Assembly (NCBI RefSeq): GCF_024223415.1
Contig: NZ_CP100500.1
DNA: 64,000 nucleotides
Origin: Escherichia coli
GTDB lineage: Bacteria; Pseudomonadota; Gammaproteobacteria; Enterobacterales; Enterobacteriaceae
Direction: 5' to 3' (one strand)
The position numbers were made by a program. Position 1 is the stretch's first letter; every line of letters starts with the position of its first letter. This document shows, in pieces, positions 27,001 to 48,000 of the stretch.

Positions 27001-30000
27001 CATCGACAGCATTAACGGGGATTATGGTCGTAAAGAAGTGGATTACGAACTGAGTTGTGATTCGGATATCCGTGACCCTGGCTGGGATATGACCCTGACA
27101 TGGACAGGCAACGAAACCAGCTACAACGATGCCGCAATTGAGACTGACGTTCCGGGGTTTGGGATTGAGCTTTTGCAAAATGGTCAGCGTTTTAAGCTAA
27201 ATACGCCACTGTCCATTAACGCAACCGACTTTACCCAAAAACCGAAGCTGGAGGCTGTGCCGGTAAAAGCGAGCGATGCCGTCCTGAATGACGGATCGTT
27301 TTCCGCTTACGCCACATTACGGGTGGATTATCAATGAATATAAAAAGCCTTCATTCGATGAAATACGCGCTGCCGGTAGCATTGATGTTTGCAATAAGCG
27401 GGCCGTCATATGCCGTGGATAACAACCTGCATTTCACCGGTCATTTATTAAGTAAATCCTGCACTCTGGTAGTGAATGGCGGGTTGCTGGCGGAAGTGCA
27501 TTTTCCGGTTGTTAGCAATCGGGATTTGATGGTTGCCGGGCAGTCCAGCCGTGTACCGGTGGTTTTTCAACTCAAAGATTGTAAAGGGCCATCGAATTAC
27601 GAGGTGAAAGTCACTTTGACCGGAACGGAAGACAGTGAACAGGCGGGGTACCTGGCGCTGGATACGTCTTCTGCGGCGCAGGGGGTCGGTATTGGCATGG
27701 AAAAAACGGACGGAACGTGGGTTGCCATTAACAACACTGCCGGAACGACGTTCATGCTCAACAATGGCGACAATAACATCAATTTCAATGCCTGGTTACA
27801 GGCGAAAAGCGGTCGTGAAGTTACTCTCGGCGAGTTCACAGCCACTCTGACCGCAACGTTTGAGTACCTTTAAAATGAAAACAATACGATTAATCATCTG
27901 CTTGCTGGCTGGCTTATTTCAGATCATAAGTTTCAGTGCGAAGGCAGAGTCTTTCCCTCTGACGGTTTATATTGGGGAACATGGAGCATACACCCAGGTC
28001 GAGTTTATTCTGGATGTTGTGACTTCGGAGGGGGCTTACCATGGTGAGTATTATCAGGATGGAAAGGCGTTGCTGGTACGACCTGTTCCGAACCGCGTAT
28101 GGACCGGCCCTGGCAATGTTCCTGCACCGACGCTGGAAGTCACTGGTGGATCCCATAATGCCAATGACAGCGATTGCCCTGGTATTAATGCATTAAGTGG
28201 TGGTTGGGGGTGCGATAGTCTGCCGGTAAAATTTACAATATCAGGAGAGGCCACAGGGTGCCCGTGGCTGGTAACGGTGCGTGTTATCAGTCATTCTTCT
28301 ACCATGTCTCCAGAAACCTATACCGGCCCACAAACGCCAGTTTCAACATGTCCAGCGCAATCGCTGACTCCTTACGATATCTCCTGGGATCAGAATTATG
28401 TTGTTAAAAACAAAGTAATACGGTTGCAGTCGACGGGGGGGATGATTGAAAAAACACTTCCCACTTTTCTGATGAAAGACGGCAAGTTGTGTGATGGTGG
28501 TCAGGCTAGTGATGAAGGCGCATATTGCCGCTTTGTCACCCAGATGCTGACCTTCTCCTCTTCAGGTTGCGATAATGGCAAAGTGACTGTAACACCCAAT
28601 CGTCACCCAATAACCGATAAAGAGGTACACGATATGGTGGTGCATGTGGATACGACAGAACGACAACCAATAGACTCAACTTGCCGGTTCACGTATGTGT
28701 TGAATATGTTCTAGCACATACCAGCCTGGTGACAGGAGTTTACCAGGCTTTTTTTCTCTCATATTGGATACTTTTCCCTACCTGAACACATTTTGGTAGG
28801 CCGAATTAGGCTTTTACGCCGCATCCGGCATTCGGTATCAGCATTCAGGGCGAAATGGCAAAACGCATCCGCCTCCTGATATTCACGGCAACTCCGGCGG
28901 CAACCACTCTTCCACTTCAATCAACACCAGCAACGCTGCATCTCCGCCGTACTCTTTCGGTGCCTGGTGAAATGCCATTACATGCGGATGTTGCGCCAGC
29001 CACAGCGGCGTTTGCTGTTTCAAAATATGCTTCCCGTGCCCGTGCATTACGCATGCGCAAAACACATGTTCACGGCGGCAGGCGGCAATCAACGCGCCCA
29101 GTTCCTGCTTGGCCTGCAGCTGCGTCAGACCGTGTAAATCCAAAAACAATTCCGGCGAATAATCACCGCGTCGCAACTTCTTCGCCTCAAAATGACTCAC
29201 ATCCGGGCGAACATATTTAACCGGACCTTCGGTATTTAATAACGGCTGAAACTCATCGGAGAAATAATGGCTGGCATCAGCCTGCTCCTGGATCAAGCGT
29301 TTCACCGGCACTTCGCTGATTTTCTTACGCTGCGGTCGGTGGACAATCGTGTCCTGCTTAATCTTGCGAGTCCCCGCCATCAACTGGCGAAACAGAGCCT
29401 GGTCCTCCTCGCTAAGTGTTGTTTTCTTTTTCATTTATCTGTCTCTATTTCTAATTTTCCTACAGTTTACCCGACTCGTAGCGCAATCGATCGTTTTAAA
29501 CGTATTTTTCCTCACTCACCGCGCGTGAATGCTGATTTATCGTCATCTTCATGGCAAACTAGCCGCCGAAATTATTGCGATCATGCCCTGGAGGAATACG
29601 TGGATAAAATTTTCGTTGATGAAGCAGTAAATGAGCTGCAAACCATTCAGGACATGTTGCGCTGGTCGGTAAGCCGCTTCAGCGCGGCAAATATCTGGTA
29701 CGGTCACGGCACCGATAACCCGTGGGATGAAGCCGTGCAGCTGGTATTGCCGTCGCTCTACCTGCCGCTGGATATTCCGGAAGATATGCGCACCGCGCGT
29801 CTGACCTCCAGCGAAAAACACCGTATTGTTGAACGCGTGATCCGCCGCGTCAACGAACGCATTCCGGTTGCTTACCTGACCAACAAAGCGTGGTTCTGCG
29901 GCCATGAATTTTACGTCGATGAACGTGTGCTGGTGCCGCGCTCGCCGATTGGTGAACTGATCAACAATAAATTTGCCGGACTTATCAGCAAGCAACCGCA

Positions 30001-45000: not shown

Positions 45001-48000
45001 TGGTACCCCCGGTACCGGATCAGGAACCTGAGGCCTGATAACTGATAAGGGCAGGGCCACTGGCTCTGCCCTTTTGCTATTCTCACCGTAACGAATCAGC
45101 GGATACCATGATTATCAAACGCACTCCTCAAGCCGCGTCGCCTCTGGCTTCGTGGCTTTCTTATCTGGAAAACCTGCACAGTAAAACTATCGATCTCGGC
45201 CTTGAGCGCGTGAGCCAGGTCGCGGCGCGTCTTGGCGTTCTGAAACCAGCGCCATTTGTGTTTACCGTTGCGGGTACGAATGGCAAAGGCACCACCTGCC
45301 GTACGCTGGAGTCGATTCTGATGGCGGCAGGGTACAAAGTGGGCGTCTACAGTTCGCCTCATCTGGTGCGTTATACCGAGCGCGTACGTGTGCAGGGTCA
45401 GGAATTGCCGGAATCGGCCCACACCGCCTCTTTTGCGGAGATTGAATCGGCACGCGGTGATATTTCCCTGACCTATTTCGAGTACGGTACGCTGTCGGCG
45501 TTGTGGCTGTTCAAACAGGCACAACTTGACGTGGTGATTCTGGAAGTAGGGCTGGGCGGTCGTCTGGACGCAACCAATATTGTCGACGCCGATGTCGCGG
45601 TAGTAACCAGTATTGCGCTGGATCATACCGACTGGCTGGGGCCAGATCGCGAAAGTATTGGTCGCGAGAAAGCAGGCATCTTCCGCAGCGAAAAACCGGC
45701 AATTGTCGGTGAGCCGGAAATGCCTTCTACCATTGCTGATGTGGCGCAGGAAAAAGGTGCACTGTTACAACGTCGGGGCGTTGAGTGGAACTATTCCGTC
45801 ACCGATCATGACTGGACGTTTAGCGATGCTCACGGCACGCTGGAAAACCTGCCGTTGCCGCTTATCCCGCAACCGAATGCCGCAACGGCGCTGGCGGCAC
45901 TGCGTGCCAGCGGGCTGGAGGTCAGTGAAAATGCCATTCGCGACGGGATTGCCAGCGCAATTTTGCCGGGACGTTTCCAGATTGTGAGCGAGTCGCCACG
46001 CGTTATTTTTGATGTCGCGCATAATCCACATGCGGCGGAATATCTCACCGGGCGTATGAAAGCGCTACCGAAAAACGGGCGCGTGCTGGCGGTTATCGGT
46101 ATGCTACATGATAAAGATATTGCCGGAACTCTGGCCTGGTTGAAAAGCGTGGTTGATGACTGGTATTGTGCGCCACTGGAAGGGCCGCGCGGTGCCACGG
46201 CAGAACAACTGCTTGAGCATTTGGGTAACGGCAAATCATTTGATAGCGTTGCGCAGGCATGGGATGCCGCAATGGCGGACGCTAAAGCGGAAGACACCGT
46301 GCTGGTGTGTGGTTCTTTCCACACGGTCGCACATGTCATGGAAGTGATTGACGCGAGGAGAAGCGGTGGCAAGTAAGTTTCAGAATCGGTTAGTGGGCAC
46401 GATCGTGCTGGTGGCGCTGGGGGTGATTGTACTTCCAGGGCTGCTGGACGGGCAGAAAAAACATTATCAGGATGAGTTTGCGGCTATCCCGCTGGTGCCA
46501 AAAGCGGGCGATCGCGATGAGCCTGATATGATGCCAGCCGCCACCCAGGCGTTGCCGACGCAGCCGCCGGAAGGCGCAGCGGAAGAGGTGCGGGCTGGTG
46601 ATGCCGCAGCACCGTCGCTCGATCCGACCACTATTGCAGCCAATAACACCGAGTTTGAACCGGAACCTGCACCGGTCGCCCCACCGAAGCCGAAACCGGT
46701 GGAGCCGCCGAAACCGAAGGTTGAAGCACCACCTGCGCCGAAGCCAGAACCGAAGCCGGTCGTGGAAGAAAAAGCTGCACCGACGGGTAAAGCCTATGTT
46801 GTGCAACTGGGGGCGCTGAAAAATGCCGATAAAGTGAATGAGATTGTCGGTAAGCTGCGCGGTGCCGGTTATCGGGTTTATACGTCGCCATCCACGCCAG
46901 TGCAGGGTAAAATTACCCGTATTCTGGTTGGGCCAGATGCCTCGAAAGATAAGCTGAAAGGATCGCTGGGTGAGTTGAAGCAACTTTCTGGCTTAAGTGG
47001 CGTGGTAATGGGCTATACGCCGAATTAATACGGTCTTGCCTGATGCGACGCTGGCGCGTCTTATCAGGCCTACGCAGGGGTAGAACCCTAGGTCGGATAA
47101 GGCGTTTACGCCGCATCCGACAGCCGTTGCCTGATGCGACGCTGACGCGTCTTATCAGGCCTACGCAGGGGTAGAACCGTAGGTCGGATAAGGCATTCAC
47201 GCCGCATCCGACAGCCGTTGCCTGATGCGACGCTGGTGCGTCTTATCAGGCCTACGCAGGGGTAGAACCGTAGGTCGGATAAGGCGTTCACGCCGCATCC
47301 GACAGCCGTTGCCTGATGCGACGCTGGTGCGTCTTATCAGGCCTACGCAGGGGTAGAACCGTAGGTCGGATAAGGCGTTTACGCCGCATCCGACACGCAT
47401 TGCACGATGCCGCAAAGGCATAAAAAGTCGATGGCGTTGAATATTTTTTCAGCGCCATTTTTATTGATGCGCGGGAAGGAAATCCCTACGCAAACGTTTT
47501 CTTTTTCTGTTAGAATGCGCCCCGAACAGGATGACAGGGCGTAAAATCGTGGGACACATATGGTCTGGATTGATTACGCCATAATCGCGGTGATTGCTTT
47601 TTCCTCTCTGGTTAGCCTGATCCGCGGCTTTGTTCGTGAAGCGTTATCGCTGGTGACATGGGGGTGTGCTTTCTTTGTTGCCAGTCATTACTACACTTAC
47701 CTGTCAGTCTGGTTTACGGGCTTTGAAGACGAACTGGTTCGAAATGGGATTGCCATCGCGGTACTGTTTATCGCTACCCTGATCGTTGGTGCTATCGTGA
47801 ACTTCGTGATAGGCCAGCTGGTGGAGAAAACGGGGTTGTCAGGCACCGATCGGGTGCTGGGCGTCTGTTTCGGTGCGTTGCGCGGTGTGTTGATTGTTGC
47901 TGCCATTCTCTTCTTTCTCGACTCCTTTACCGGGGTGTCGAAAAGCGAAGACTGGAGCAAATCACAGCTGATCCCGCAGTTCAGTTTTATCATCAGATGG

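Follow-up and report, generated by a model that had tools for sequence, protein, structure and literature searches.

In Escherichia coli, GTG initiation led by a Shine-Dalgarno (SD) sequence is the standard minority class of starts, and SD-independent starts, discussed in PMC13245402 and PMC7043885, are likewise a known category. Among the described GTG-started genes of strain K-12 are prmB (b2330, NP_416833.4), mnmC (b2324, NP_416827.4) and dedD (b2314, NP_416817.2). Here we analyse the same three genes in a 64,000-nt stretch of an E. coli chromosome (contig NZ_CP100500.1 of RefSeq assembly GCF_024223415.1; hereafter the window), where each GTG lies inside a longer open reading frame (ORF). 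The starts and lengths are those of K-12, and the alleles differ from the K-12 proteins by strain-level substitutions only: 1 (PrmB), 12 (MnmC) and 1 (DedD) amino acids. Whereas prmB and dedD conform to the standard pattern, with GGAGG or GAGGAG at 5-nt spacing, mnmC departs from it, having no SD beyond a GAG. We conclude, with a probability of about 95%, that prmB, mnmC and dedD are ordinary genes translated from near-cognate GTG codons. The curated reference already carries the three starts, which are hence known; two of them (DedD and MnmC) have direct proteomic confirmation, and the PrmB start rests on annotation, SD and very strong evidence from comparison between species. Our analysis thus bears out the annotated starts of three housekeeping genes and provides a worked example of the longest-ORF rule failing. 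Its additions are modest: cross-species support for the PrmB start, and a promoter explanation of a conserved TTG 5' of mnmC.

The three starts and their longer frames

The region around prmB is typical of the species, with window bases 29200-30600 matching 5,425 of 5,426 complete E. coli genomes and showing 100% identity to several of them. The coding sequences in question, together with the longest of the upstream stretches, are as follows:

29600..30532, plus strand: prmB coding sequence, 50S ribosomal protein L3 Gln-N5 methyltransferase, 310 amino acids, GTG start
34270..36276, minus strand: mnmC coding sequence, bifunctional tRNA mnm5s2U34 synthesis enzyme, 668 amino acids, GTG start
46366..47028, plus strand: dedD coding sequence, cell division protein DedD, 220 amino acids, GTG start
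29267..29599, plus strand: 'extension' of the prmB ORF, non-coding, 111 codons from ATG 29267; first 168 nt antisense within smrB

A preliminary description of the window had placed the starts at 29600, 36276 (minus strand) and 46366, and we found a GTG at exactly each of these positions. GTG 29600-29602 (+) is followed by GAT AAA ATT TTC GTT GAT GAA, encoding DKIFVDE; GTG 36276-36274 (-) by AAA CAC TAC TCC ATA CAA, encoding KHYSIQ; and GTG 46366-46368 (+) by GCA AGT AAG TTT CAG, encoding ASKFQ. The same description had stated that the ORFs run further 5', and indeed the frame is open for 119 (prmB), 22 (mnmC) and 6 (dedD) codons before the GTG. Mechanical ORF calling consequently gives 29267..30532 for prmB (421 amino acids from an ATG, adding 111 codons), 34270..36336 for mnmC (688 amino acids from a TTG, adding 20 codons) and 46348..47028 for dedD (226 amino acids from a TTG, adding 6 codons). 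As had also been predicted, the longer dedD frame overlaps folC to a larger extent, by 29 nt from the TTG versus 11 nt from the GTG.

These longest ORFs could be the real genes, with PrmB beginning at ATG 29267, MnmC at TTG 36336 and DedD at TTG 46348. The frames are open and equipped with start codons, and two of the long proteins have been deposited: a 421-residue PrmB (EFF06251.1, named 'adenine-specific DNA-methyltransferase') and a 226-residue DedD (WP_152923730.1). Both are identical in sequence to the long ORFs of the window. They are, however, rare outliers that we regard as longest-ORF mis-annotations: the long PrmB occurs on a single contig (for the long DedD no count was given), while the short forms of all three proteins are each on 1000 or more contigs. 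Other PrmB calls, of 335 and 333 amino acids in IMG and of 292 amino acids in GenBank (ASJ44149.1), match other in-frame candidates.

Curated annotation begins at the GTG codons throughout. In a RefSeq strain that is identical to the window over the prmB region, PGAP annotates prmB, mnmC and dedD as coding sequences of 933, 2007 and 663 nt. Only the prmB coding sequence of that strain is identical to the window, being an exact match to 29600..30532; mnmC and dedD were matched by their equal annotated lengths, and their start coordinates were checked against K-12 MG1655. The curated MG1655 record has GTG at the homologous bases for all three genes, with proteins of 310, 668 and 220 amino acids. 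The accession versions of the K-12 proteins (.4,.4 and.2 for PrmB, MnmC and DedD) indicate that their sequences were revised in the past. Comparison with curated references had been proposed as one means of checking the GTG starts, and both RefSeq/PGAP and MG1655 carry all three of them; we looked for a curated reference with a longer upstream start and found none, the long forms occurring as rare calls only.

Family profiles agree with these annotations, since the NCBIfam models start at or just past the GTG and none reaches into an upstream extension. PrmB scores 463.1 bits against the equivalog model TIGR03533 (cutoff 229.7), with positions 1-284 of 284 covered; the alignment spans residues 124-406 of the 421-residue ORF, which are residues 13-295 of the GTG-start protein. 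MnmC scores 949.7 bits against the equivalog NF002480 (cutoff 540), which begins at residue 7 of the GTG-start protein, and Pfam detects both the Methyltransf_30 and the DAO (FAD oxidoreductase) domains. DedD scores 389.9 bits against the equivalog NF008641 (cutoff 150), whose first position falls on the GTG codon; its C-terminal SPOR domain is detected by Pfam, and PDB entry 6ZTG matches residues 28-220.

A Met occupies the position of the GTG, directly before KHYSIQ, in the MnmC crystal constructs 3AWI and 3PS9, and MnmC of the window is near-identical to 3AWI, differing at only a few of the 668 aligned residues. The 688 residues of 3AWI_A equal the length of the long mnmC ORF, but we rejected this as support for that ORF; the agreement is a coincidence, the chain consisting of a 20-residue His tag with thrombin site (...VPRGSH-M) and the 668-residue protein. 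Alignment with the Yersinia pestis MnmC structure 3PVC runs from residue 4-5. In PDB 2QY6 chain A (the YfcK/MnmC N-terminal domain), residue 3 is Leu rather than Met at the GTG position and is preceded by two extra residues, which suggests a construct built on another start assumption or a cloning artefact.

A separate observation concerns DedD in protein clusters. The 90%-identity cluster that contains the 220-residue DedD also contains 422-residue FolC proteins and has FolC as its representative. FolC and DedD are not related to one another, and their grouping looks like an artefact of clustering; gene calls that fuse folC with dedD over the 11-nt overlap may have linked them.

Comparative, proteomic and ribosome-binding evidence

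To compare the starts across Enterobacterales we scanned for FabB, whose gene lies between the three genes, which yielded 80 loci with 10-kb flanks; the orthologs in these were identified by tblastn. The position of the E. coli GTG is occupied by a start codon in 58 of 59 species for prmB (GTG 34, TTG 19, ATG 5, other 1), in 73 of 75 for mnmC (GTG 70, TTG 2, ATG 1, other 2) and in all 26 for dedD (GTG 22, ATG 3, TTG 1). Such interchange of GTG, TTG and ATG before fixed next residues is characteristic of an initiation codon. Moreover, no other possible start intervenes between an in-frame stop and the homologous codon in 26/58 (prmB), 17/73 (mnmC) and 18/26 (dedD) species; in E. albertii prmB, for example, the stop lies 8 codons upstream, with no start codon between it and the GTG.

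The start codon of prmB varies by clade. GTG is found in Escherichia, Citrobacter, Enterobacter, Pantoea and most Erwiniaceae (Erwinia psidii has TTG), and TTG in Yersinia, Serratia, Rahnella, Pectobacterium, Morganella and Providencia. ATG occurs in just 5/58 species, so a non-ATG start has been retained across the order. At the Morganella psychrotolerans locus (positions ~9802-9810), the mnmC start position reads ATG TGA and then a stretch of A's; this 5' end looks frameshifted in the homopolymer, which might reflect an assembly error, a pseudogene or the use of another start.

In prmB and mnmC, the GTG is precisely where conservation takes on a three-base periodicity. Column entropies at codon positions 1/2/3 are 1.62/1.68/1.66 upstream versus 0.15/0.12/0.88 downstream of the prmB GTG, and 1.36/1.51/1.36 versus 0.72/0.50/1.17 for mnmC. 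The sequence 5' of dedD is coding in the folC frame, and there the entropies are 0.69/1.25/0.64 upstream versus 0.40/0.16/1.16 downstream; the peak of variation, at dedD-frame position 2 (the folC third position) before the GTG, moves to position 3 at the GTG. The upstream starts of prmB and dedD are rarely usable, those at prmB codons -111, -87 and -25 in 1, 1 and 4 of ~58 species and that at dedD codon -6 in 3/26. Hence the extensions, which the preliminary description had called implausible, are not conserved as coding sequence, and many species have a stop a few codons before the start. ATG 29267 furthermore sits antisense inside smrB (28883..29434, minus strand). Taken with the profiles and references that begin at the GTG codons, these data leave the longest ORFs a negligible chance of being the real genes.

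An error in the opposite direction can be considered for prmB, where ATG at codon +18 (29654) would give a 292-residue protein. ATG is generally the preferred start codon, and ASJ44149.1 is a call of this length. Yet residues 2-17 of PrmB, which such a start would omit, are among the most conserved and show clear third-position periodicity, TIGR03533 begins upstream of ATG 29654, and the SD match before this ATG is weak (-4.0 kcal/mol) and has no spacer. We regard a downstream start of this kind as scarcely credible.

Published N-terminal peptides bear directly on two of the genes. TRAINSPOTTER Table S1 (PMC13245402) assigns the DedD peptides MASKFQNR and ASKFQNR to GTG 2431682-2431684, for which its Ribo-RET evidence column reads 'Ribo-RET, INRI', and a Met-initiated N-terminal peptide of MnmC to GTG 2441764-2441766. 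In the MnmC row only the elongation-based column (REPARATION) is filled, and the SD proxy columns are empty (PMC13245402). A longer protein would have Val at this position, and the preceding residue offers no tryptic site; the Met peptide is therefore diagnostic of initiation at the GTG, and speaks against the longest ORFs of both genes. N-terminal proteomics had been suggested as a check on all three starts, and the published data supply it for DedD and MnmC.

We scored every in-frame ATG, GTG and TTG from the upstream stop to codon +40 for pairing with the 16S rRNA tail, and identified these elements:

29590..29594, plus strand: prmB SD, GGAGG, 5-nt spacer to the GTG, duplex -9.3 kcal/mol
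46355..46360, plus strand: dedD SD, GAGGAG, 5-nt spacer, duplex -8.9 kcal/mol, embedded in the folC 3' end
36285..36287, minus strand: GAG at positions -11..-9 of mnmC, its sole SD-like element, duplex -2.6 kcal/mol

The GTG codons of prmB and dedD have the best SD duplexes among the in-frame candidates of their frames. The presence of an SD, which had been proposed as a check on the three starts, was thus borne out for prmB and dedD and only weakly for mnmC. The prmB SD is the only conserved block 5' of the start across species, and that of dedD is kept as GGGGAG or GAGGAG; the mnmC GAG recurs in nearly all of the printed upstream contexts of 75 loci (judged by eye, uncounted). In favour of a longer frame, ATG 29267 of prmB has a moderate SD-like match, of -6.6 kcal/mol. 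RNA folding at the three starts did not depart from shuffled controls (z = 0.02, -0.23 and -0.98).

A further alternative is dual initiation, in which the GTG codons are the main starts and prmB GTG -25, mnmC TTG -20 and dedD TTG -6 see minor use. All three share the frame of their gene, and in this strain no stop separates them from the GTG; PrmB is called at 335 and 333 residues in IMG, and other E. coli genes have documented near-cognate starts upstream, including a GTG of the neighbouring aroC (PMC13245402). Against this, the SD duplexes of the candidates are poor (+1.9, -2.9 and -4.0 kcal/mol, respectively), and the candidates are not conserved as codons. TRAINSPOTTER also searched a six-frame database, and dedD and mnmC are nevertheless listed with annotated starts only (PMC13245402). 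Dual initiation is therefore, in our judgement, very unlikely, if somewhat less so than a wholly different start.

On our reading, initiator tRNA reads these GTG codons as formyl-Met, and the longer ORFs exist merely because an in-frame stop happens not to lie just upstream. At prmB and dedD, the 30S subunit is positioned by the strong SD 5 nt upstream; at dedD, where the site falls within the end of folC, the 11-nt overlap would allow coupling within one operon. For mnmC, initiation proceeds at a GTG with GAG alone as SD, probably on a short leader (~25 nt) from a conserved weak promoter whose -35 hexamer would supply the misleading in-frame TTG.

Weak initiation signals of this type may set low expression. 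Their retention would fit selection: mnmC keeps GTG in 70/73 Enterobacterales, with an entropy of 0.29 bit at a base that could be G, A or T without loss of the start codon, and has a minimal SD, GAG, besides; prmB has a non-ATG start (GTG or TTG) in 53/58 species. We consider the odds to be even that weak signals are kept by selection to hold expression low. If so, raised translation of these modification enzymes would be deleterious.

GTG starts account for ~14% of E. coli genes. In the K-12 annotation of the region, 4 of 25 genes begin with GTG (prmB, mnmC, pdxB and dedD; binomial P = 0.47 versus 14%), and an in-frame start codon lies 5' of the annotated one in 7 of the 25. Among the annotated starts confirmed by TRAINSPOTTER, 50 of 688 are GTG (PMC13245402). 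A GTG start within a longer frame is an ordinary pattern.

The conserved TTG upstream of mnmC

The in-frame TTG that opens the 688-residue mnmC ORF differs from the upstream candidates of prmB and dedD in being conserved: it is in frame and open, and hence usable at codon -20, in 42/73 species. It also forms the first three bases of a putative -35 hexamer:

36308..36336, minus strand: putative sigma-70 promoter of mnmC, -35 TTGCGC at 36336..36331, 17-nt spacer, -10 TAAGAT at 36313..36308

TTG and TAAGAT lie in two conserved islands 5' of mnmC. We found the arrangement TTGC-N17-TAnnnT in 70/73 species. In 52 of them it is at -60; in the remaining 18 it is shifted to -61, -59 or -62, where the TTGC element is out of the mnmC frame yet keeps its 17-nt spacing to TAnnnT. 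Since the spacing is fixed even when the element is out of frame, we read the TTG as a promoter element and not as a codon. On this sequence pattern, the conserved TTG would be the -35 hexamer of a weak promoter, with transcription predicted to start near 36301 and a leader of ~25 nt. If this promoter is correctly placed, the TTG lies upstream of the transcript, which would further disfavour its use as a minor start.

A coding extension of mnmC was considered for the 42 in-frame species and rejected. Substitutions fall at codon positions 1/2/3 in proportions of 27/43/30% in the upstream stretch versus 30/20/49% in the coding sequence, and the 42 species have 40 distinct extension 'peptides'. 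To judge from these substitutions, the stretch is evolving as non-coding DNA. A consensus promoter scan of both intergenic regions returned no sites at a 9-of-12 threshold, and the Cappable-seq supplement examined had no transcription start entry for the mnmC region.

Several observations weigh against GTG initiation of the three genes as we describe it. The TRAINSPOTTER table has no entry for PrmB, b2330 (PMC13245402), no direct experimental mapping of its start was found in the literature that could be reached, and the INRI-seq and TetRP supplements contained nothing for prmB, mnmC or dedD. The mnmC GTG has no real SD, only the GAG, and its Ribo-RET evidence column is blank. On sequence alone, the TTG usable in 42/73 species makes a minor extended form of MnmC possible. 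The TTGCGC-N17-TAAGAT element scores 7/12 in E. coli and was left uncalled by the consensus scan. Finally, long forms have been publicly deposited, though rarely. Literature searches were likewise unproductive: no title or abstract retrieved for PrmB concerned its start, and a full-text search for the mnmC GTG start, judged by titles, returned no paper on it.

The divergent spacer between fabB and mnmC contains, at 36353-36387, the near-palindrome AGCGTACACTTGTACGC followed by AACAAGTCCGATCAGC (minus-strand reading), in a region of moderate conservation across species. The two sequences look similar to the fabB operators of FabR and FadR.

Neighbouring genes and spacers

The start of dedD and the end of folC share a short stretch:

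46366..46376, plus strand: overlap of the dedD start and the folC end, 11 nt; folC stop TAA at 46374-46376

As in coupled overlapping stop/start pairs, the final codons of folC contain both the SD and the start of dedD, and the 11-nt overlap is conserved across genera. The two genes belong to one operon. From its layout, the overlap would fit translational coupling between them.

A fourth GTG-initiated gene of the region, pdxB (40199-41335, plus strand), also has GTG in K-12. The preliminary description had not included it, since no start precedes the GTG in its ORF; TRAINSPOTTER gives it as a GTG dbTIS supported by Ribo-RET and INRI (PMC13245402). Two other genes have in-frame start codons ahead of the annotated one. 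In aroC (30564-30569, plus strand), GTG 30564 stands directly before the annotated ATG 30567, so that the mechanical ORF has 362 amino acids versus 361. Peptides from both GTG and ATG are given in TRAINSPOTTER Tables S1/S2 (PMC13245402), indicating two co-expressed N-terminal forms. In accD (44040-44124, plus strand), the ORF runs from ATG 44040, and the annotated ATG follows 28 codons later at 44124.

Downstream of dedD, the spacer to cvpA (47029-47559) is 531 nt in the window versus 258 nt in K-12. The extra sequence consists of about four tandem copies of a ~90-nt unit of palindromes resembling repetitive extragenic palindromic (REP) elements, GCCTGATGCGACGCT...GTCTTATCAGGCCTAC and GTCGGATAAGGCG...CGCCGCATCCGAC, forming an expanded cluster of the bacterial interspersed mosaic element (BIME) type.

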